A stretch of 9,872 bases of DNA, from the IMG/VR virus record IMGVR_UViG_2671180724_000011; one strand, written 5' to 3'. Positions 432 through 9,872 of this stretch are shown piece after piece; the stretch's first letter is position 1, and each line of letters starts with the position of its first letter. Under the pieces are notes generated by a model that was not told the origin of the DNA, did not search any database, and saw only the letters and a program-made list of their open reading frames with translations. The position numbers and the translations under genes are program-made. The DNA is from a virus (taxonomy: Duplodnaviria; Heunggongvirae; Uroviricota; Caudoviricetes).

Positions 432-560
432 TCAGCCGTTAGATTTTGCCGAACTGGAAAGCGCCTGTTTAAATTCGTTGAAGCTGAGAGCTTCTTCGCC
501 TTCGGCAAGACCTTCGAAGTATTCTTCGTAAGCCTTTTCCATGATTGTGTCGAAATCCAT
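432..560 (-). CDS. ydfB: small prophage protein, YdfB-like (42 aa, MDFDTIMEKAYEEYFEGLAEGEEALSFNEFKQALSSSAKSNG)
   Basis: Not in the ORF track (below its size cutoff). Found by reading the minus strand: ATG at 560-558 with AGGTGA upstream, TGA stop at 434-432; starts 1 nt after the stop of the upstream gene; 129 nt as I recall for K-12 ydfB. Confidence 0.6.
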   Translation of the reverse strand: MDFDTIMEKAYEEYFEGLAEGEEALSFNEFKQALSSSAKSNG

Positions 561-561
561 A

Positions 562-717
562 TCACTCACCTGAGTTTCTTTCCAGCCAGCGACGGGCACC
601 ATTTTCGGTTTTAAACGTTTTGCTTTTGGTATACGTCATCGCGGTGAACGTACCGTCCTGGTTGGGAAACACGCCGTACACCAGAGATTCGTTGTTGCCA
701 AGATCGATAGTATCCAT
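562..717 (-). CDS. ydfA: small prophage protein, YdfA-like (51 aa, MDTIDLGNNESLVYGVFPNQDGTFTAMTYTKSKTFKTENGARRWLERNSGE)
   Basis: Internal ATG at 717-715 preceded by GAGG 4-5 nt upstream; the track ORF extends to an ATG at 798 (78 aa) that also has a GAGG upstream, so the start is ambiguous; the 156-nt version matches the size I recall for K-12 ydfA. Confidence 0.65.
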   Translation of the reverse strand: MDTIDLGNNESLVYGVFPNQDGTFTAMTYTKSKTFKTENGARRWLERNSGE

Positions 718-900
718 GTTGACCTCATTTCCCCTTAACGCCGGGGTAGCGGAACAAAAACCTGCTGCATAGTTATTAAAGTTGAACCCTGCCGTCATGT
801 TCTTACGCCTCGGGCTGGCTACTTAACCCCTGACCACTGCCTGGTAACTCGAAGTATTGCCCTGCATTCTGTGGGGTGGGGTGGGTTGGTATGAAAGGAA

Positions 901-918
901 GGATACCCATGGGTATCC
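901..918. promoter_or_regulatory. operator: perfect 18-bp palindrome GGATACCCATGGGTATCC (left operator site 1)
   Basis: Sequence is its own reverse complement; lies between the repressor gene 3' end and the leftward small-gene operon; same core recurs at 928-941 and degenerately at 1437-1450 and 1462-1475. Confidence 0.6.
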
Positions 919-927
919 AAAAAGTAA

Positions 928-941
928 ATACCCATGGGTAA
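928..941. promoter_or_regulatory. operator: ATACCCATGGGTAA, 13/14 palindromic (left operator site 2)
   Basis: Near-identical core to 903-916; centre-to-centre spacing to site 1 is 25 bp. Confidence 0.55.
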
Positions 942-982
942 TTTTTTGATGTGTCTTAACTGGTGACTGGTTGTTTGGTGAG

Positions 983-1402
983 TTATGATGCGTTTTGTGC
1001 TTTCTTTTTACGGATTTCTTCGTAGATCATATTGTAATACTGTTTTTTCTCTTCAAGAGTTTTTAATAAGTTATCCGCTTCACTTTCTGGCAGTTCGTCT
1101 AAGAGATCTAAAAAAATACGTTGTCGTGGCGTTAGAACCCTTGTTTCATAATTGGAGGCTGTGTTCGTTGATGATGAAACGATACCATCCATCCATCCCC
1201 GGGGTAACCCAAAGGACTCTTCTATAATCTCCACCATATCATCAGCGATCCGTTTTTTTCCTTTTTTCCCCTCTGGGTACAACATTCTTGATACATAAGA
1301 AGGCTCGCGACCGATCTTTCTGGCCACGTTAACCGCTTTACCATCGCATTTCTCATCACGAATTTTGATGAGTTGTTGTCGTCTAAATTCATATTTGTCC
1401 AT
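983..1402 (-). CDS. prophage repressor, CI/DicA-like HTH (XRE family), 139 aa from ATG at 1402
   Basis: Minus-strand ORF; product has an HTH-like N-terminal half and a C-terminal LTPRQRIFLDLLDELPESEADN segment reminiscent of DicA-type repressors; divergent from a cro-like gene with operators on both sides. The track's 153-aa version begins at a TTG (1444); the first ATG is 1402 and has no Shine-Dalgarno, consistent with a leaderless repressor mRNA. Confidence 0.8.
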   Translation of the reverse strand: MDKYEFRRQQLIKIRDEKCDGKAVNVARKIGREPSYVSRMLYPEGKKGKKRIADDMVEIIEESFGLPRGWMDGIVSSSTNTASNYETRVLTPRQRIFLDLLDELPESEADNLLKTLEEKKQYYNMIYEEIRKKKAQNAS

Positions 1403-1436
1403 AGGTAAATAATAGATGCGATTACCGCAAGGTAAA

Positions 1437-1478
1437 CAACCCAAGGGTATTGACTTTTGTTTACCTGTGGGTATTCTT
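1437..1478 (+). promoter_or_regulatory. right operator/promoter region: two degenerate operator sites (CAACCCAAGGGTAT 1437-1450; TTACCTGTGGGTAT 1462-1475) overlapping a candidate -35 TTGACT (1451-1456) and -10 TATTCT (1473-1478)
   Basis: Each site matches 11/14 to the left-operator core; centres 25 bp apart, same as the left pair; -35/-10 with a 16-nt spacer lie about 25 nt upstream of the cro-like AAGGAG/ATG. Confidence 0.45.
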
Positions 1479-1502
1479 TGCTGTGTTTACTAAGGAGTAG
1501 CT

Positions 1503-1784
1503 ATGGAAGAATTAAGAATATTTCTCAATTCTCTTTCGTCAGATGAACAGCGTATGTTTGCATGTGAGTGTGGTACTAGCATCGGTTATCTAAGAAAGGC
1601 ATTGAGTAAAGGTCAAATGTTAGGGGCATCGTTATGTGTCCTTATTGAGCGAGCCAGTAATGGTGAAGTTACACGTCAGCAACTAAGGCCTTTTGATTGG
1701 ATGAATATTTGGCCCGAGCTGGAAGATACCAAAACGTTAACACAACCACTTACTAGGAGCTTGATTCATGAAAATCAAGCATGA
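1503..1784 (+). CDS. Cro/YdaS-like small HTH regulator (93 aa)
   Basis: ATG at 1503 with AAGGAG 6 nt upstream; divergent from the repressor; the IERASNGEVTRQQLRPFDW segment resembles YdaS/Cro-family proteins as I recall them. Confidence 0.75.
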   Translation: MEELRIFLNSLSSDEQRMFACECGTSIGYLRKALSKGQMLGASLCVLIERASNGEVTRQQLRPFDWMNIWPELEDTKTLTQPLTRSLIHENQA

Positions 1785-2193
1785 ACACATCCGCATGGCG
1801 ATGAATGCCTGGGCGCGTCCTGATGGCGAAAAAGTTCCAGCAGCTGGAATAACCCAGGCTTATTTTGAGTTGGGTATGACGTTTCCTGAACTGTATGACG
1901 ACAGCCATCCGGAAGCCCTGGCTCGCAATACCCAGAAAATTTTCCGCTGGGTAGAGAAAGACACCCCTGATGCAGTTGAAAAAATTCAGGCGTTGTTACC
2001 AGCGATCGAAAAGGCAATGCCACCTTTGCTGGTGGCCAGAATGCGCAGCCACAGTTCAGCTTATTTTCGGGAGTTGGTGGAGACGCGGGAGCGACTGGTG
2101 AGAGACGCTGATGATTTTGTCGCAGTGGCAATCGCCGGTTTCAATCAGATGAACCGTGGTGGCCCGGCAGGAAATGCTGTGGCAGTACATTGA
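1768..2193 (+). CDS. YdaT-like protein (141 aa), the cII-position gene of Rac-type prophages
   Basis: ATG at 1768 with AGGAG 7 nt upstream; overlaps the upstream gene by 17 nt (translational coupling); N-terminus MKIKHEHI and ~140 aa length match my recollection of Rac YdaT. Confidence 0.75.
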   Translation: MKIKHEHIRMAMNAWARPDGEKVPAAGITQAYFELGMTFPELYDDSHPEALARNTQKIFRWVEKDTPDAVEKIQALLPAIEKAMPPLLVARMRSHSSAYFRELVETRERLVRDADDFVAVAIAGFNQMNRGGPAGNAVAVH

Positions 2194-2264
2194 CTGACAA
2201 TAGCCATATCGAATCGCTTCCGGCAATTCGTGAGTAAAAAGATTCGGTATCAGAAGAGGTGAGT

Positions 2265-2423
2265 ATGGCTAACGCCTGGCTCAGATTATGGCATGACATG
2301 CCAAATGACCCTAAGTGGCGAACAATTGCCAGGGTGTCAGGGCAGCCAATTGCAACAGTGATGGCAGTGTATATCCACGCTCCTGGTGAGCGCGTCACGA
2401 AATGTCACGCGAGGTCACATTGA
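2265..2423 (+). CDS. N-terminal segment of replication initiator / replisome-organizer-like protein (52 codons), out of frame with the downstream ORF
   Basis: ATG at 2265 with GAGGTGAG just upstream; MANAWLRLWHDMPNDPKWRTIARVSGQPIATVMAVYIH resembles N-termini of phage replication-initiator proteins; ends at TGA 2421-2423 inside the first iteron cluster. Confidence 0.5.
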   Translation: MANAWLRLWHDMPNDPKWRTIARVSGQPIATVMAVYIHAPGERVTKCHARSH

Positions 2424-3336
2424 TGTCACGACAGAAGATTTGGCAAGTGCGCTCGACGTGACAGAAGAGGTAATTGATTCAATTTTGCAGACGATGCAGG
2501 GGCGGGTACTTGATGGTGATTTAATCACTGGATGGGAAAAACGCCAGGTGCTTAAAGAGGACAACGGCAATATTTCGCAAACCGCAAAATCTCCGGCAGA
2601 GCGCAAGAGGGCGCAGCGTGAGAGGGAAAGAAAGCGGGAACAAAATGGCGATTGTCACGGCGCGTCACGAAATGTCACGCACATGTCACGACGAGTCACG
2701 ACAGATAAAGATACAGATAGAGATACAGATAAAGAAGATCAAAACACTATGGTCCATGGCGTAAAAAACGCCACGAACCATGTAGGGGATGTTCAGACCG
2801 TCACTCCTGGCCAGCCCGCAGGCACGACACCGGAAGCCGATTCAGCGTATGCGCTGAAAGCCGATTCGGGCGCTGTGCAGCAGGCGATGACCGCTGGGCC
2901 GGAGCAATCACACCAACTGCAGCAGCCTGAAGCCGATTCCGCCATTCAGCGGGAAGCCGATCGGGTAGTCCCGGAAAACACCGGGCAGCCTGTGGGACGA
3001 GTGGATTATCCGGATGTGTTCGAACAGGTCTGGCGGGAATACCCGTTACGAGCCGGGGCAAACCCGAAGAAATCCGCTTTCAGTGCCTGGAAGGCCAGAT
3101 TACGCGAGGGGGTGCCACCAGAGGCCATGCTGGATGGTGTAAGGCGTTACACAAGATACCTGGCTGCTACCGGGAAAACGGGAACGGAATTTGTTCAGCG
3201 AGCGACGACGTTTTTTGGACCGGACCGGAATTTTGAAAACCCCTGGTTGCTCCCGGTAAGCGGCACGAACAACCAGCGTTGTGTTAATCATATTTCTGAA
3301 CCGGACACCGAAATTCCGCCGGGATTCAGAGGGTAA
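2386..3336 (+). CDS. replication initiator protein, main body (316 codons from GTG at 2386; probably continuous with 2265-2423 via a frameshift)
   Basis: Long ORF whose frame is open from 2362; no convincing RBS at the GTG; contains both iteron clusters in the same frame, an Asp-rich hexamer-repeat stretch, and a C-terminal FEQVWREYPLRAGANPKKSAFSAWKARL-type segment seen in phage replication proteins. Confidence 0.65.
   Translation: MSASRNVTRGHIDVTTEDLASALDVTEEVIDSILQTMQGRVLDGDLITGWEKRQVLKEDNGNISQTAKSPAERKRAQRERERKREQNGDCHGASRNVTHMSRRVTTDKDTDRDTDKEDQNTMVHGVKNATNHVGDVQTVTPGQPAGTTPEADSAYALKADSGAVQQAMTAGPEQSHQLQQPEADSAIQREADRVVPENTGQPVGRVDYPDVFEQVWREYPLRAGANPKKSAFSAWKARLREGVPPEAMLDGVRRYTRYLAATGKTGTEFVQRATTFFGPDRNFENPWLLPVSGTNNQRCVNHISEPDTEIPPGFRG
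2394..2430. repeat. iteron cluster 1: four GTCAC(G/A) hexamers at 2394, 2404, 2414, 2425
   Basis: 10-11 bp phasing (one helical turn); about 45 bp near-identical to cluster 2. Confidence 0.7.
2654..2700. repeat. iteron cluster 2: five GTCACG hexamers at 2654, 2664, 2674, 2685, 2695; candidate origin of replication inside the initiator gene
   Basis: 10/10/11/10 bp phasing; immediately followed by AGATAN hexamer repeats; arrangement analogous to lambda ori inside gene O. Confidence 0.7.
2703..2732. repeat. five tandem AGATAN hexamers (AT-rich stretch adjacent to iterons; encodes a DKDTDRDTDK repeat)
   Basis: AGATA at 2703, 2709, 2715, 2721, 2727. Confidence 0.6.
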
Positions 3337-4025: not shown

Positions 4026-6824
4026 ATGTGGGGAAGTGAAAACAAACAAAATCTGGACGTACTGGATCCTGTGCAGTTGGTGCGTATCGAAGCGGTACAC
4101 CGGGGGTTCCTTTACCAGCATCTTTACGCTGTAGGCTGCTTACTTTTGGCGCAGAGGGCAGCTATGGACTCAGTAACTGTCGAGCTTGATGAGGATATTG
4201 AGCTGAAATCCAAACAGGAACGTCTCTACATTCAGGTTAAAACCCGTTCAAAACCTATTATGCCCAACGATGTGTCGGGGGCTCTGGAGCGATTTGTAAA
4301 GCTCAGAAATGAGCATACTTCGGCAAACCGCGAAGGGGTGGCTTCTTTTGTGATTATTGTAAACCAGGCGCCTGGACCGCTGCTTCAGAAGATGATTGAC
4401 GATAAAAAGCTTCCTTCTGATGTTCTTATTGTCTGGCCCCAGTCGACAGCTGGACGTCACCCGGCACTTCCGCCCGCATGGAGTACTCTGGCTGATGCGG
4501 CCACATGGTGTATCGCAGAAGCAGAAAAGCTGAAATTTTCACTATTGTCCCCAGAATCCTTGATTTGGAAGTTAGCAGGATTGGTTCAGCTTGCCGCCAC
4601 CGGAGGCGATACCAATGGACAACATACGTTTTTCACGGAAGAACTTACTGAACTATTTGAACAGTTGATCGTTCAGCTACAGGACTTTCCTGCACCACCA
4701 GCACTGTACCGCCCACAGAACGAAGAACCTTCTCTCACATCTGGTGAGCGGATCCGTATCCTTTGTGGACTCTCAGGTGCAGGCAAGACAGCTTGGGCCG
4801 CACAGGCCGCATTACACTCCACTGCACTTTGTGCTTATTACGACACCGGTGATCTTCCCGGTCCAGCTCTGGCCAGTACGCTGGTGCGCGAGATGGCTGC
4901 TAGATTTACAGCCCGTGACCAAGACGGTTTGCGCAGGATTTTGCTCCCCGGTGCCAGTGGTTTTGAGGCTCTTAGGAGTTTTGATACCTACCTGAAAGAG
5001 CAGGGTACCACCTTGGTGCTGGTTCTGGATAACGCCCATCGTGTACCTGCGGAAAATCTACTGGATGTTCTGAATGCAACTACACATATTCGTTTTGTGC
5101 TGTTGTGCCAGCCTCACGAAAACGTTCGCGAACTGGAGGTCATGACGGGGCTACAGCGCGAGGGCCTGCAGGGATGGAATCTCGATACGGTAGCTGTCGT
5201 TGTAAACGATATCGGAGGATTTGCCACCGCTATGGGATACGAGCAGCTACGGGCTTACACTGGTGGTCTTCCCCTGTATGTAGAGAGCGCCGCAAAAATC
5301 GCCGTTTCTGATTATGAGCGTAATGTCGATGCTCTGTGTGCTGAACTCCAGCAACAAACCCATACTGCGGAAACCGCCCAAGAAATTATTCTGTCACGTG
5401 TATTTCAGGGATTTGAATCACTACTTCAGAGCGCGCTGGCATTGTTCAGTCTCTCTGACGTAGGGCTGAGTCGCGAAGAGATTTCTACGCTCCTAATCAA
5501 TTCGCTGAACATTTCACCAAGCAGTGCTGCTTCTTTAATTAGGAAAATGCGCGCTACTGGCACTATTGAAATTTATGGAAACCAGACCCTGAAGGTACAT
5601 GATGCTGTCAGGGGGCTAGGACTGCAACATCTGGAACTGATGGATCAGGGTATATCGAACAAAGCGCTACTAGCGCTGAAAGACCTTTTAGTTGAAAGTC
5701 TTCATAATACCCGCAATACAAAACGGTTATCGTTGTTGACTCAACTTTATATTAAGCTCAATGATGTCACGACGTTGATCGAACTCTCAGGCCAAGAAAT
5801 GTTTTATGAGATGGGCGTGACGGTCGACATTCTTGCAAGCTTGGAGCGTGCTGCAACATCGGACTTATTGGGACCTGTTCATAAATTCTGGGCATTGGAT
5901 GGCCTTGTTTTCGTTGAGCTTAAAGACGGAATATCCGACCACATTGCTCAGAGGTTAAACATCATGGGAGCTTTACTTGCGGAGCACAAGTTCGGCTATC
6001 AAGAAGAGATGGCCTATGCAATGAAACGAATGTTATTTTCGGCAGAAAGCAATGATGCACGAGAAGTTCAAAAGCTGGCACAGGAAGTCCGCCCCCAACT
6101 CCCAGATGAAGAACATAAACGCATCTTTGACTACAACCATGCCATTGCACTCTGGAGATTAAAAAAACTCAAGGATGCTGAAACATTAAGCTGTAATGTT
6201 ATACAAGGGTACTATTCTTTATTTGGTATCACACCTGCTGATGTCATAGGAAAAAACGCCGACGCATTATGGAAAACTATTAATCATTCCGAAAATATGC
6301 AGGAACACTTTAAACATATGGCTGATGCTCTGGAGTTGCTGGCCAGAATTCGTGATGCGCAGGGAAAACTGTCACCATTACTGCGTATTCATTCGATGAA
6401 GTTCTACAATCTGGCCATGGCCCCGGAATCCATGGTCAGGGTGGGCCAAGATCTGGCGGATGAGTTTGTTGCCATAAAGGATTACGACGGTGCCAAGGAA
6501 GTCATGGAGCAACATGTCCTGCCGGTTGTCAATGAGGCAGGTCTAGTACATCGACTGATTCAGGTTCGAAGCCAATACGCAGTCATATTAGCACTATCGG
6601 GTCAGCATAAAGCAGCTGATGTCGAAATGCAGCGCCTTGCTCCCTATATCGAAGGCCTCACAGGTGTACAGCGTCAAGAAATCCAAAATCAATCAAATTA
6701 CATCGTACAGCTTGCCCATAAAGCAGCAAAGACTAAATTAACTGAAGTTTTTGGTGCGGTCGGCCGGAATGAACAATGCCCCTGTGGCTCGGGAATAAAG
6801 TACAAAAAATGTCACGGTGCCTGA
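4026..6824 (+). CDS. 932-aa multidomain P-loop NTPase: N-terminal restriction-endonuclease-like region, central Walker A/B NTPase (STAND/AAA+-like), helical C-terminal region, terminal SEC-C-type zinc motif; candidate antiphage defense protein
   Basis: ATG 4026 with AAGGA 7 nt upstream; uninterrupted 2799-nt ORF; Walker A GLSGAGKT (aa 248-255, nt 4767-4790); Walker B-like LVLVLDNAH (aa 330-338); N-terminal RGFLYQ...VELDEDIEL...IQVK (aa 26-72); C-terminal CPCGSGIKYKKCHG (nt 6777-6818). Confidence 0.9.
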   Translation: MWGSENKQNLDVLDPVQLVRIEAVHRGFLYQHLYAVGCLLLAQRAAMDSVTVELDEDIELKSKQERLYIQVKTRSKPIMPNDVSGALERFVKLRNEHTSANREGVASFVIIVNQAPGPLLQKMIDDKKLPSDVLIVWPQSTAGRHPALPPAWSTLADAATWCIAEAEKLKFSLLSPESLIWKLAGLVQLAATGGDTNGQHTFFTEELTELFEQLIVQLQDFPAPPALYRPQNEEPSLTSGERIRILCGLSGAGKTAWAAQAALHSTALCAYYDTGDLPGPALASTLVREMAARFTARDQDGLRRILLPGASGFEALRSFDTYLKEQGTTLVLVLDNAHRVPAENLLDVLNATTHIRFVLLCQPHENVRELEVMTGLQREGLQGWNLDTVAVVVNDIGGFATAMGYEQLRAYTGGLPLYVESAAKIAVSDYERNVDALCAELQQQTHTAETAQEIILSRVFQGFESLLQSALALFSLSDVGLSREEISTLLINSLNISPSSAASLIRKMRATGTIEIYGNQTLKVHDAVRGLGLQHLELMDQGISNKALLALKDLLVESLHNTRNTKRLSLLTQLYIKLNDVTTLIELSGQEMFYEMGVTVDILASLERAATSDLLGPVHKFWALDGLVFVELKDGISDHIAQRLNIMGALLAEHKFGYQEEMAYAMKRMLFSAESNDAREVQKLAQEVRPQLPDEEHKRIFDYNHAIALWRLKKLKDAETLSCNVIQGYYSLFGITPADVIGKNADALWKTINHSENMQEHFKHMADALELLARIRDAQGKLSPLLRIHSMKFYNLAMAPESMVRVGQDLADEFVAIKDYDGAKEVMEQHVLPVVNEAGLVHRLIQVRSQYAVILALSGQHKAADVEMQRLAPYIEGLTGVQRQEIQNQSNYIVQLAHKAAKTKLTEVFGAVGRNEQCPCGSGIKYKKCHGA

Positions 6825-7044
6825 GTCTTTGTACGACCATGCGGGCCTTATTGTCTTGCTATTGCTCTTATGGTTCGCCTTTCTGATTGATTTCATATTG
6901 GCGAGGTGACGGGAGTTAAGTAGAATGGCTGCGGGTGCTTGAGGCTATCTGTCTCAGGCATGAACACCAAAGGCAGATAGAGAAAAGCCCCAGTTAACAT
7001 TACGCGTCCTGCAAGACGCTTAACATTAATCTGAGGCTCAATCT

Positions 7045-7257
7045 ATGAACGGCAAATCTAGGTTAGCCTCTTACGTGCCGAAAGGCAAGGAGAAGCAGGC
7101 TATGAAGCAGCAAAAGGCGATGTTAATCGTCCTGATCGTCATCTGTTTAACCGTCATAGTGACGGCACTGGTAACGAGGAAAGACCTCTGCGAGGTACGA
7201 ATCCGAACCGGCCAGACGGAGGTCGCTGTCTTCACAGCTTACGAACCTGAGGAGTAA
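7045..7257 (+). CDS. mok-like in-frame upstream extension of hok (70 aa)
   Basis: ATG 7045 in frame with hok and sharing its stop, as I recall for chromosomal mok/hok pairs such as mokC/hokC. Confidence 0.45.
   Translation: MNGKSRLASYVPKGKEKQAMKQQKAMLIVLIVICLTVIVTALVTRKDLCEVRIRTGQTEVAVFTAYEPEE
7102..7257 (+). CDS. hokD: Hok/Gef-family type I toxin, HokD (RelF)-like, 51 aa
   Basis: MKQQKAMLIVLIVICLTVIVTALVTRKDLCEVRIRTGQTEVAVFTAYEPEE is near-identical to the HokD sequence as I remember it; single transmembrane helix and conserved C-terminal Cys/Tyr segment; stop TAA 7255-7257. Confidence 0.85.
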   Translation: MKQQKAMLIVLIVICLTVIVTALVTRKDLCEVRIRTGQTEVAVFTAYEPEE

Positions 7258-7327
7258 GAGACCAGGCGGGGGAGAAATCCCTCGCCACCTCTGATGTGTC
7301 AGGCATCCTCAATGCACCCGCACTTAA

Positions 7328-7352
7328 CCCGCTTCGGCGGGTTTTGTTTTTT
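7328..7352 (+). terminator. Rho-independent terminator after hok (CCCGC-TTCG-GCGGG followed by TTTTGTTTTTT)
   Basis: GC stem 7328-7332 / 7337-7341 with 4-nt loop and an 11-nt T-rich tract. Confidence 0.75.
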
Positions 7353-7424
7353 CCTGGCATTCTGGTTTACAATTCGCACGCCAGCCTGAACAACTGGCAC
7401 CTGCTGCGCCAGCAGAGACAACCG

Positions 7425-7703
7425 ATGGCGCACGATACCAAATTACACAATTCTAATGATTCTGCTGTCTTTGCCAGCAGGTGCGGACGGCGTTTTCACG
7501 CATTCACATCAGACTGGTTCCAGCATCCTCCATGCACTGAAGAGCAGGCTGAATGGATAATTCAGTGTTACCGCAGGCGTGGATACGAGGTTAAGAAAGC
7601 TCTTAGTCTCGACTATCGTCACTGGATAATCTCAGTCAGACTCCCTTACTCCGAACGCCCACCGCGTCCGTCCCGCACATTCCAGCAACGCATCTGGAGG
7701 TAA
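7425..7703 (+). CDS. small prophage protein, copy 1 (92 aa), in the rem position downstream of hokD
   Basis: ATG 7425; the track's longer 7296 start would run through the hok terminator; C-terminal 70 aa nearly identical to copies 2 and 3, N-terminal 24 aa diverged. Confidence 0.65.
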   Translation: MAHDTKLHNSNDSAVFASRCGRRFHAFTSDWFQHPPCTEEQAEWIIQCYRRRGYEVKKALSLDYRHWIISVRLPYSERPPRPSRTFQQRIWR

Positions 7704-7704
7704 C

Positions 7705-8076
7705 GTGCGGGTATTACTTCGACCTGTTCTGGTACCGGAACTCGGGCTGGTGATCGTTAAGCCGGGCCGTGAATCCATGCCGGTATTCCACAATACCCGG
7801 GTACTGGTGGAGCCGGAACCGAAAAGCATGCGTAATCTGCCGTCCGGGGTCGTTCCTGCCGTTCGCCAGCCGCTGGTGGAAGACAAAACATTGCTGCCGT
7901 TTTTCAGTAACGCACGGGTGATTCGTGCTGCTGGTGGTGCTGGTGCATTGTCTGACTGGCTGTTGCGCCATATTAAATCCTGCCAGTGGCCACACGGCGA
8001 TTATCATCACAGCGAAACCGTCATTCACCGTTATGGTACCGGCGCAATGGTGTTGTGCTGGCACTGCGACAACCAG
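7705..8076 (+). CDS. GTG-start protein, copy 1, truncated by an N-run; possibly DUF968/YdfU-like
   Basis: GGAGG then TAA stop of the upstream gene then GTG 7705 (coupled); Cys/His-rich segment HIKSCQWPHGDYHH...CWHCDNQ; ORF runs into Ns at 8077. Confidence 0.55.
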
Positions 8077-8087
8077 NNNNNNNNNNN
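8077..8087. other. run of 11 N (gap or masked bases)
   Basis: Literal n characters in the sequence. Confidence 1.
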
Positions 8088-8182
8088 CAGGCTTTTCAGC
8101 TTTTGCAGAAGAATAAACTCATCTACAATCTTGCGCGGGGCTGAACTCCCGCTGAGTAACACCGTGCCACCGGAGAAAACCG

Positions 8183-8461
8183 ATGGCACGCAACGTAAAA
8201 TATTACAATTCTGATAATTCGCCCGTTCTTGCCTGCACGCACGAGCGGTATTCTCACGCATTCAAGTCTGAATGGTTCCAACACCCTCCATGTACTGAAG
8301 AGCAGGCTGAATGGATAATTCAGTGTTACCGCAGGCGCGGATACGAGGTTAAGAAAGCCCTTAGTCTCGACTACCGTCACTGGATAATCTCCGTCAGGCT
8401 TCCTTACTCTGAACGCCCACCGCGTCCGTCTCGCACATTCCAGCAACGCATCTGGAGGTAA
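8183..8461 (+). CDS. small prophage protein, copy 2 (92 aa)
   Basis: ATG 8183 with GGAG 7 nt upstream; identical in protein sequence to copy 3 over its full length. Confidence 0.7.
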   Translation: MARNVKYYNSDNSPVLACTHERYSHAFKSEWFQHPPCTEEQAEWIIQCYRRRGYEVKKALSLDYRHWIISVRLPYSERPPRPSRTFQQRIWR

Positions 8462-8462
8462 C

Positions 8463-9076
8463 GTGCGGGTATTACTTCGACCTGTTCTGGTACCGGAACT
8501 CGGGCTGGTGATCGTTAAGCCGGGCCGTGAATCCATGCCGGTATTCCACAATACCCGGGTACTGGTGGAGCCGGAACCGAAAAGCATGCGTAATCTGCCG
8601 TCCGGGGTCGTTCCTGCCGTTCGCCAGCCGCTGGTGGAAGACAAAACATTGCTGCCGTTTTTCAGTAACGCACGGGTAATTCGTGCTGCTGGTGGTGCTG
8701 GTGCATTGTCTGACTGGCTGTTGTGCCATATTAAATCCTGCCAGTGGCCACACGGCGATTATCATCACAGCGAAACCGTCATTCACCGTTATGGTACCGG
8801 CGCAATGGTGTTGTGCTGGCACTGCGACAACCAGCTGCGTGACCAGACATCCGAATCACTCGGGCAACTTGCTCATCAAAACCTGTCAGCATGGATGATT
8901 GACGTCATCGGTCACGCAATAAGCGGTACGCAGGAGCGTGAATTATCTTTGGCTGAATTATCCTGGTGGGCGGTCCGCAATCAGGTGGCGGACGCGCTAC
9001 CGGAAGCGGTATTACGTCGTTCGCTGGGGTTGCGTGCGGAAAAAATCCGCTCAATGTACCGTGAAAGCGACATCGT
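8463..9076 (+). CDS. GTG-start protein, copy 2, truncated by an N-run after about 204 codons; possibly DUF968/YdfU-like
   Basis: Same coupled GTG start; extends about 80 codons beyond the point where copy 1 is cut; runs into Ns at 9077. Confidence 0.6.
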
Positions 9077-9087
9077 NNNNNNNNNNN
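9077..9087. other. run of 11 N (gap or masked bases)
   Basis: Literal n characters; exactly 1000 bp from the first N-run. Confidence 1.
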
Positions 9088-9182
9088 CAGGCTTTTCAGC
9101 TTTTGCAGAAGAATAAACTCATCTACAATCTTGCGCGGGGCTGAACTCCCGCTGAGTAACACCGTGCCACCGGAGAAAACCG

Positions 9183-9461
9183 ATGGCACGCAACGTAAAA
9201 TATTACAATTCTGATAATTCGCCCGTTCTTGCCTGCACGCACGAGCGGTATTCTCACGCATTCAAGTCTGAATGGTTCCAACACCCTCCATGTACTGAAG
9301 AGCAGGCTGAATGGATAATTCAGTGTTACCGCAGGCGCGGATACGAGGTTAAGAAAGCCCTTAGTCTCGACTACCGTCACTGGATAATCTCCGTCAGGCT
9401 TCCTTACTCTGAACGCCCACCGCGTCCGTCTCGCACATTCCAGCAACGCATCTGGAGGTAA
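9183..9461 (+). CDS. small prophage protein, copy 3 (92 aa)
   Basis: Exactly 1000 bp downstream of copy 2; identical protein sequence. Confidence 0.7.
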   Translation: MARNVKYYNSDNSPVLACTHERYSHAFKSEWFQHPPCTEEQAEWIIQCYRRRGYEVKKALSLDYRHWIISVRLPYSERPPRPSRTFQQRIWR

Positions 9462-9462
9462 C

Positions 9463-9872
9463 GTGCGGGTATTACTTCGACCTGTTCTGGTACCGGAACT
9501 CGGGCTGGTGATCGTTAAGCCGGGCCGTGAATCCATGCCAGTATTCCACAATACCCGGGTATTGATGGAGCCGGAACCGAAAAGCATGCGTAATCTGCCG
9601 TCCGGGGTCGTTCCTGCCGTTCGCCAGCCGCTGGAGGAAGACAAAACATTGCTGCCGTTTTTCAGTAACGCACGGGTGATTCGTGCTGCTGGTGGTGCTG
9701 GTGCATTGTCTGACTGGCTGTTGCGCCATATTAAATCCTGCCAGTGGCCACACGGCGATTATCATCACAGCGAAACCGTCATTCACCGTTATGGTACCGG
9801 CGCAATGGTGTTGTGCTGGCACTGCGACAACCAGTTGCGTGACCAGACCTCCGAATCACTCGAGCAACTTGC
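9463..9872 (+). CDS. GTG-start protein, copy 3, partial (runs off the window end); possibly DUF968/YdfU-like
   Basis: GTG 9463 with the same coupled context; no stop before the window end, so absent from the ORF track; a handful of substitutions relative to copy 2. Confidence 0.6.
   Translation, partial: MRVLLRPVLVPELGLVIVKPGRESMPVFHNTRVLMEPEPKSMRNLPSGVVPAVRQPLEEDKTLLPFFSNARVIRAAGGAGALSDWLLRHIKSCQWPHGDYHHSETVIHRYGTGAMVLCWHCDNQLRDQTSESLEQL

Follow-up and report, generated by a model that had tools for sequence, protein, structure and literature searches.

The window, by which we mean the whole 9,872-nucleotide stretch of the Caudoviricetes record IMGVR_UViG_2671180724_000011 that was analyzed, has one long open reading frame (ORF), at 4026-6824 on the + strand. 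It encodes a protein of 932 amino acids in which three Pfam domains are over threshold: Cap4_nuclease, AAA_22, and, at the very end, SEC-C. It is a single gene in a lambdoid prophage, in a moron position, between the replication genes and hokD/rusA/Q. A reading of the letters, made before any database search and called here the sequence-only reading, had pointed to an almost textbook SEC-C motif at 6777-6821, at the extreme C-terminus of a nucleoside triphosphatase (NTPase) in a defense context. The main point of interest is what such a tail does on such a protein. We find it to be a genuine SecA-type metal-binding domain (MBD), carried by a protein with the predicted architecture of an antiviral STAND (Avs) receptor, and it may serve there as a docking module.

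Read directly from the DNA, 6777-6821 translates to CPCGSGIKYKKCHGA, with TGC at 6777-6779 giving Cys918 and a TGA stop at 6822-6824, so the motif is where the sequence-only reading had put it. The start of the domain is not: VGRNEQ, encoded at 6759-6776, is part of the SEC-C domain, which therefore begins four to six codons upstream of 6777. In the Pfam search that had been suggested as a check, SEC-C (PF02810) scores 38.8 bits, where the gathering cut-off is 20.4 bits, and its alignment (E = 8e-10) runs over residues 914-931 of the protein and positions 1-18 of the 19 in the profile. The arrangement C918-P-C920-G-S922-...-Y926-...-C929-H930 fits the CXCX8C[H/C] ligands plus the conserved Ser (CXCXSX6CH) and the aromatic residue, following the definition of the CXCXSX6CH-type MBD signature in 10.1101/2020.07.21.215244, and "textbook" was a fair word for it. 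By phmmer, the only significant PDB sequence matches of the tail are the SecA C-terminal zinc peptides 1SX0, 1OZB, and 1TM6 and the YchJ C-terminal peptide 9L6B. NCBIfam gives tail-only matches, to YecA, YchJ, and similar models, all far below their cut-offs. Aligned to the C-terminus of E. coli K-12 SecA as read from the genome, 16 of 20 positions are identical, and the likeness to the SecA MBD extends to the CXCX8CH ligands, the Ser, the Tyr, the basic surface residues, and the placement as the last element of the protein, preceded by a poorly conserved linker. What differs is the carrier, here of an immune-type nuclease-STAND-TPR build where SecA is a translocation ATPase, and the Lys that follows GSG in SecA, which is Ile here and hydrophobic (Ile or Leu) throughout the gamma-proteobacterial clade. 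We conclude that the tail is a genuine SecA-type MBD, far beyond a chance match, and we are very nearly certain of the identity of the domains in the 932-residue protein. The motif itself is already annotated, the RefSeq name being "SEC-C metal-binding domain-containing protein".

Ahead of the tail, Cap4_nuclease (PF14130) is barely over its cut-off, with 27.1 bits against 26.2 at residues 25-77, and AAA_22 scores 32.6 bits against 27 at residues 239-364. The PD-(D/E)xK-type set, Walker A, and Walker B are invariant in an alignment of 49 homologs with 49-81% identity. The AlphaFold2 model made from that alignment has a mean predicted local distance difference test (pLDDT) score of 81. Its N-terminal domain is alpha/beta, a winged helix accompanies the P-loop domain, and the part from about residue 541 to 909 is all-helical. 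In the tail the score drops to 53 and then 39 in the final two 10-residue blocks. Foldseek against PDB finds the STAND-TPR protein PH0952 (6MFV) at E = 3.9e-13, terminase-bound Avs3 (8DGC), which is the closest solved Avs structure, at E = 1.9e-12, and plant NRC-type NLRs; in all, the fold matches of the body take in MalT, PH0952, NRC, Apaf-1, SeAvs3, and Cap4. The N-terminal domain qualifies as Cap4 by the Pfam threshold and the PD-(D/E)xK catalytic residues. The middle qualifies as STAND by its nucleotide-binding, helical, and winged-helix module, as in MalT, Apaf-1, and NLRs, followed by a C-terminal repeat-type sensor domain. As for Avs, there is a defense effector at the N-terminus that can be swapped, and a location in mobile elements and defense islands. 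As modeled, the protein has the architecture of Avs3 and Avs7 with a SEC-C tail added. The coordinates are given in Table 1, in which L and P numbers designate loci and proteins of the family.

Table 1. Features of the receptor gene in the window, and of the 151-amino-acid ORF found at related loci
Feature	Location	Strand	Remarks
Whole gene, Cap4 nuclease - STAND NTPase - TPR-like sensor - SEC-C tail	4026..6824	+	932 aa; RefSeq WP_000264572.1
Cap4-like PD-(D/E)xK nuclease domain	4026..4670	+	aa 1-215; family-invariant E53, D55, D57 ... Q70-x-K72
STAND NTPase module	4731..5645	+	aa ~236-540; nucleotide-binding domain, helical domain, winged helix
Walker A / P-loop GLSGAGKT	4767..4790	+	aa 248-255; G248, G251, G253, K254, T255 invariant in family
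Walker B LVLDNA	5016..5033	+	aa 331-336; invariant D335-N336
All-helical TPR-like repeat domain	5646..6704	+	aa ~541-893; presumed ligand sensor
Variable linker	6705..6758	+	aa 894-911; VQLAHKAAKTKLTEVFGA; poorly conserved
SEC-C / SecA-like MBD	6759..6821	+	aa 912-932; VGRNEQCPCGSGIKYKKCHGA
Tail ligands by sequence			C918, C920, C929, H930; conserved S922, Y926; basic R914, K925, K927, K928
TGA stop	6822..6824	+	immediately 3' of motif
151-aa ORF	L048 12734-13189	-
151-aa ORF	L050, L053, L055, L058, L061, L062, L065, L068, L070, L072, L076, L083, L086, L087		position as in L048
151-aa ORF	L092-L096 6001-6456
151-aa-related domain	L090 about 6878-7309		fused form

Two variations bear on how the body works. 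In P0267 (893 amino acids, a singleton cluster), an N-terminal TIR domain replaces Cap4, with the NTPase, the sensor, and the SEC-C tail unchanged. Effector swapping of this kind is typical of defense STANDs. The Walker B of the family has the form hhhhD-N, with Asn336 invariant. Many P-loop NTPases have a second acidic residue at that position, and judging from the residue, hydrolysis may be slow or absent here, with nucleotide binding acting as the switch.

The tail is conserved well beyond the close relatives. VGRNExCPCGSGxK[YF]KKCHG, followed by zero to two residues, is the C-terminus in 108 of the 120 closest homologs, with the residues just upstream freely variable. Clustering at 50% identity leaves 105 full-length representatives, which are 25-47% identical to the query, and the tail is present in 68 of them, absent in 37, and found in all major branches of the tree. 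In this widespread family, having the tail is both the ancestral state and the majority one. Conservation was counted in the 67 tails that can be aligned, from proteins with 27-47% identity to the query. CxCxSx6C[H/C] is invariant in all 67 (C, C, S, C), as is the aromatic position (Y/F); each of the 2 Lys flanking it (K14 and K16) is kept in 64, N4 in 63, and R3 in 60, while the fourth ligand position is split between His (34) and Cys (33). The mean net charge of these tails is +3.9. The 30 residues upstream are non-conserved and Arg/Pro-rich with a charge of about +3.6, and in other branches of the family the linker, also Arg/Pro-rich, is much longer than in the query, with a median of 37 residues from column 893 to the first Cys. 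The pattern in the alignment indicates a tail that is under strong constraint where present, yet dispensable.

At the loci with no tail, a frameshifted SEC-C was sought downstream and none was found; these genes end at a genuine stop. In a clade of alphaproteobacterial type, the linker part PPPPQWQMP of tail-bearing relatives is kept and the stop comes before the MBD, which looks like loss of the tail. A betaproteobacterial subclade (Variovorax, Polaromonas, Massilia, Paracidovorax, Roseateles; L029, L030, L031, L033, L035, L036, L052; P0121) has a variant tail, with the fourth ligand one residue away from its usual place and five or six residues after it, and with CDC in L030. Three proteins, P0153, P0244, and P0245, have no SEC-C and end instead in extremely Lys/Arg-rich low-complexity sequence, such as ...KNRKNKLKEQKIQRRKNRRK. 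Their composition suggests that the C-terminal appendage may work by binding a polyanion.

In the tail-less clade of alphaproteobacterial type, immediately downstream of the STAND gene and convergent with it, there is encoded a conserved hypothetical protein of 151 amino acids (Table 1), with 14 bases from stop to stop in L092-L096. The STAND gene and this ORF form a two-gene cassette that is found in differing contexts in Ralstonia, Pseudomonas, and many alphaproteobacteria. In P0145, encoded at L090, a domain 42% identical to the 151-residue protein follows the SEC-C motif as an in-frame fusion. Neither Pfam nor PADLOC has a match to the ORF. The 151-residue protein may be a partner, an alternative C-terminal adaptor, or a regulator. 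L090 has in addition a second STAND protein (DUF4062 + NB-ARC) at 483-2654 (-) and an integrase adjoining the fused gene, and it is a small island with 2 NLR-like genes.

The gene has copies of at least 99% identity in 16 of 5,426 complete E. coli genomes, and it is also present in IMG/VR prophage contigs and on 54 plasmids. Relatives occur in 230 of 185,579 species genomes, and a profile search through 1.84 billion representative proteins gathers 392 clusters at 50% identity with E < 1e-30. The hosts are mainly alpha-, beta-, and gamma-proteobacteria, with Desulfobacterota, Sporomusa, and one cyanobacterial metagenome-assembled genome (MAG) in addition. Megablast against phage genomes has no match to the gene, and tblastn against them retrieves no more than two metagenomic phage records, both unannotated, at 34-39% identity. 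The surroundings are those of defense islands in several cases. A Vibrio cholerae relative directly follows a Gabija-like pair and is near PIN/AbiH genes, a Pantoea relative adjoins another Gabija-like pair, and a Pseudomonas relative adjoins AbiH. The 129 immediately flanking ORFs in 67 distinct contexts include LmuB (4) of Lamassu, AbiH (4), GajB (3) and GajA of Gabija, MkoA of Mokosh, IetS, PDC-S51, and MADS components, and a Ppl-like protein is near the gene in several loci. A conserved partner gene was sought across 84 loci and none is common to the whole family, which fits a single-gene system. In the window, a scan for promoters and terminators gives no + strand site in the 243-bp gap upstream of the gene, with counts at or below shuffled expectation, and the composition profile around the gene has a modest GC dip only.

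Some copies are irregular. E. coli copy H8 (NZ_OZ546984.1 361511-365562) is interrupted by an annotated IS3-like element, ISEc52, so that the annotation has one part called "dsDNA nuclease domain" and another called "SEC-C". In IMG/VR, copy L105 (6001-10049) occupies 4,049 bases as compared with 2,796, which suggests a similar insertion. In a Desulfobacterium MAG, the match at L017 10001-13307 covers 3,307 bases as compared with about 2,796, which suggests that some 500 bases have been inserted within the gene; protein P0065 from the same genome has 932 amino acids and a SEC-C tail. Pseudomonas sp. MPB23 (L011/L012) and Sphingopyxis sp. H053 (L077/L078) each have 2 copies of the gene at separate places on the same replicon or contig.

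To see what is new, the protein has to be set beside systems that resemble it in one part or another. Among the Cap4-STAND-TPR receptors, Avs3 and Avs7 have more than 1,500-2,000 amino acids, and the protein here is about half that size. It also has no sequence match to the PADLOC Avs models, none of which reaches even E <= 1, and on that ground we rejected membership in the named Avs types of PADLOC v2 (Avs1-5 and others). Its PADLOC matches are limited to the N-terminal LmuA/DUF4297/HamA nuclease and to hits on SEC-C only, from the CBASS E2 and E1-E2 profiles and PDC-S12. SEC-C-like segments are thus not confined to this family among defense-associated proteins. The nuclease (PF14130, DUF4297) is shared with CBASS Cap4 and Lamassu LmuA, from which the protein is set apart by having neither a SAVED domain nor an SMC partner. 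We rejected a CBASS Cap4 effector proper, there being no SAVED domain and a STAND NTPase after the nuclease, and by analogy activation would come from STAND oligomerization and not from a cyclic nucleotide. MalT and PH0952, STAND proteins with helical or TPR sensors, are regulatory and carry a DNA-binding effector or none, unlike the nuclease and MBD tail found here in defense contexts.

On the side of the tail, the other E. coli proteins with a SecA-like MBD, YecA/AscA and YchJ, likewise have it as a portable C-terminal module on an unrelated body. In YecA the body is a chaperone-like UPF0149 domain and in YchJ an NTF2-like regulator, and neither has an NTPase, a nuclease, or a defense context. 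Rugutis, a single-gene antiphage protein from a lactococcal plasmid, is an experimentally supported defense protein with a SEC-C motif (PMC11381338); its motif is N-terminal, in 359 amino acids of an otherwise novel fold with no NTPase, and it is not homologous to the family here. The words "SEC-C", "SecC", "SecA", and "zinc" do not occur in the main text of PMC12803255 on the Avs families. In the literature searched, we found no account of the protein WP_000264572 itself, no SecA-type MBD described as a conserved C-terminal appendage of an Avs-like receptor family, and no test of its role. The sequence-only reading was right to see an NTPase, given the Walker A GLSGAGKT, the AAA_22 score, and the STAND fold, and right to see a defense context, given the Cap4 nuclease and the prophage and defense-island setting. 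The binding of metal, SecB, and ribosomes by SecA-type tails, to which it appealed, is borne out by the literature (PMC6620043; 10.1101/613315; 10.1101/2020.07.21.215244). The roles that it put forward for the tail here, as a tether to a host complex or a module for sensing or autoinhibition, are possible ones. It went too far in calling the tail unusual, for the tail is the majority state of its family, has given the protein its RefSeq name, and has counterparts in the PADLOC profiles and in Rugutis.

We propose that the protein is a prophage-borne, single-protein Avs-like receptor, in which the Cap4 DNA nuclease would be the effector, the STAND NTPase the switch and oligomerizer, and the TPR-like solenoid the sensor. 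A ligand, probably encoded by a phage, would bind the sensor. If Avs3 and Avs7 are a guide, this would open the NTPase for nucleotide exchange and oligomerization, and the Cap4 domains would assemble into an active DNase whose cleavage of DNA would abort the infection. This is the standard scheme for Avs proteins, as given in PMC12803255 and by the Avs3 structure 8DGC. The last 21 residues are predicted to hold Zn or Fe through the 3 Cys and the His, and to be an accessory docking module by which the receptor would be held on a polyanionic surface of the host. Candidates for that surface are the exit-tunnel region of the ribosome and/or the acidic face of the chaperone SecB, and docking there could position the sensor, or prime it, at the sites where phage proteins first emerge. 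The MBD may double as a latch that can be released. Drawn as it is from the analogy to SecA and YecA, docking on ribosomes and/or SecB gets somewhat less than an even chance from us. A more specific form of it, in which the MBD parks the NLR-like receptor at the ribosomal exit tunnel or SecB so that phage proteins are inspected while nascent or unfolded, strikes us as unlikely.

The analogy has experiments behind it. The SecA C-terminal tail consists of a flexible, poorly conserved linker and a highly conserved MBD (10.1101/613315). Fused to SUMO, the MBD by itself is enough for co-sedimentation with 70S ribosomes, the crosslinking products of SUMO fused to the C-terminal tail (SUMO-CTT) react with anti-uL23, ribosome binding of the MBD is abolished by modifying the metal-binding cysteines, and the MBD binds SecB (PMC6620043). 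The YecA MBD confers binding to SecB and ribosomes, and MBDs have been proposed as a toolkit for linking new functions to the Sec/ribosome machinery (10.1101/2020.07.21.215244). SecA-like MBDs bind iron besides zinc, with the conserved Ser setting the preference (10.1101/613315). On the Avs side, SeAvs7 incorporates EF-Tu as a needed scaffold, according to PMC12803255, hence Avs receptors can co-opt translation factors. For our protein, a tether to a polyanionic surface fits because the linker is flexible and basic, the surface residues are SecA-like, the tail in the AlphaFold2 model has low confidence and is not confidently placed on the receptor body, and Lys/Arg tails replace it in some members.

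Several findings weigh against this proposal. The label "Avs-like" is based on architecture and fold, with no PADLOC Avs model to back it. The tail is missing from the 37 representatives mentioned above and from about 20 of 80 genome loci, so it is accessory and not needed for core activity. On a neighbor-joining tree of the protein body its presence and absence require at least 25 state changes, and loss has been repeated. With regard to SecB, the hydrophobic residue in place of the SecA Lys after GSG could alter the contact. There are also tail-bearing members in Sporomusa and in the cyanobacterial MAG, and to our knowledge SecB is mainly proteobacterial, which argues against SecB as the sole partner. 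The Cys, Ser, Gly, and aromatic residues could be conserved for no other reason than the fold, and basic tails would be equally suited to binding DNA beside a DNase. YchJ, a SEC-C protein, is reported to be a DNA-binding regulator (PMC13377102).

The last points lead to an alternative in which the basic MBD and linker are a nucleic-acid-binding zinc knuckle that helps Cap4 hold its substrate or helps the receptor sense phage nucleic acid. The net charge (about +4 for the MBD and +3.6 for the linker), the replacement of SEC-C by pure Lys/Arg tails in three lineages, the predicted dsDNA nuclease as effector, and the report on YchJ all speak for it. We still regard it as improbable, since the demonstrated partners of SecA and YecA are SecB and ribosomes, not free DNA (PMC6620043; 10.1101/2020.07.21.215244), the tail is at the opposite end from the nuclease, and P0267, with its TIR effector, keeps the tail where there is no DNase. 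A different use of the same residues would be an autoinhibitory latch, with the linker and MBD folded back on the sensor or the NTPase to keep the receptor off until a ligand displaces them. Such a latch is compatible with docking and the two could coexist. It has a model in SecA, whose C-terminal tail autoinhibits until the MBD ligands SecB or ribosomes relieve it (PMC6620043; 10.1101/613315), and in the C-terminal helix that takes part in the switch of SeAvs7 from the autoinhibited to the active state, as reported in PMC12803255. A toxic nuclease does require tight control, and losing the tail in many lineages would be tolerable if other autoinhibitory contacts exist. What makes the latch doubtful to us is that AlphaFold2 gives no confident docking of the tail on the body, that the MBD stays SecA-like across very divergent receptors when co-variation with the receptor surface would be expected, and that tail-less variants persist and spread with no obvious compensating changes, which would carry a risk if the receptor depended on the tail as its main brake.

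Plant NLRs with integrated domains are the model for another reading, in which the tail is a decoy that mimics the C-terminus of SecA/YecA and catches a phage factor attacking the Sec/SecB pathway. The near-identity to the host SecA MBD, the NLR-like carrier, and the frequent gain and loss, typical of arms-race modules, would all go with that. It is nevertheless very unlikely in our judgment: we came across no published phage protein aimed at the SecA MBD, sensing is already catered for by the large TPR domain, and such a decoy would rival SecA in binding to SecB and ribosomes. Less credible again is a metal or redox sensor, in which the Cys3His site would report iron, zinc, or oxidative status and tune the receptor. 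SecA-like MBDs do co-purify with iron, a preference tied to the invariant Ser (10.1101/613315), which is kept in 67 of 67 tails here, and YchJ is reported as a sensor of reactive oxygen species (PMC13377102). However, the redox switch of YchJ is a separate Cys149 disulfide and not the SEC-C site (PMC13377102), no link of phage infection to metal status is evident, and Lys/Arg tails cannot stand in for a metal sensor. That the motif is a neutral relic or a chance occurrence with no function in the 932-residue protein might be argued from its being dispensable in a third of the lineages. This we practically dismiss, in view of the Pfam E value and of a tail that remains near-invariant at 27-47% overall identity to the query next to a linker that is free to vary.

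Elsewhere in the window, directly downstream of the STAND gene, 7045-7257 (+) encodes a Hok/Gef-type toxin (...MKQQKAMLIVLIVICLTVIVTALVTRKDLCEVRIRTGQTEVAVFTAYEPEE), annotated as hokD in an identical prophage copy. The stretch 7536-9872 contains two 11-N gaps, at 8077-8087 and 9077-9087. The blocks flanking them recur exactly 1000 and 758 bases away, with the hypothetical/DUF968 genes downstream of hokD duplicated. Tandem Repeats Finder reports nothing in 6800-9872, and the repeats look like a scaffolding or assembly artifact, not a biological tandem repeat.

What is new here, by the literature searched, is an Avs-like Cap4-STAND-TPR receptor with an accessory, SecA-like, putatively docking tail; what was known is the annotation of the motif. 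If the tail does no more than stabilize the fold or bind DNA, the finding comes down to the ordinary annotation of a domain. Receptors of the Avs/NLR-like kind are thought to find phage proteins by free diffusion. If docking is true, a conserved and portable tail for the ribosome or SecB on a widespread family suggests that the place of the sensor in the cell matters, and that immune sensing draws on the translation or chaperone machinery of the host, as is hinted by the dependence of Avs7 on EF-Tu. In the more specific form, with inspection of nascent or unfolded proteins, recognition would be co-translational or chaperone-assisted, a second case after Avs7 and EF-Tu of immunity co-opting the machinery of translation and targeting, and the Lys/Arg tails and the 151-residue partner, fused in P0145 and convergent in the tail-less clade, would be interchangeable adaptors. 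The system is small, with one protein of 932 amino acids in E. coli prophages and plasmids, and nature has supplied tail-less, Lys/Arg-tailed, and domain-fused variants that make the docking hypothesis directly testable.

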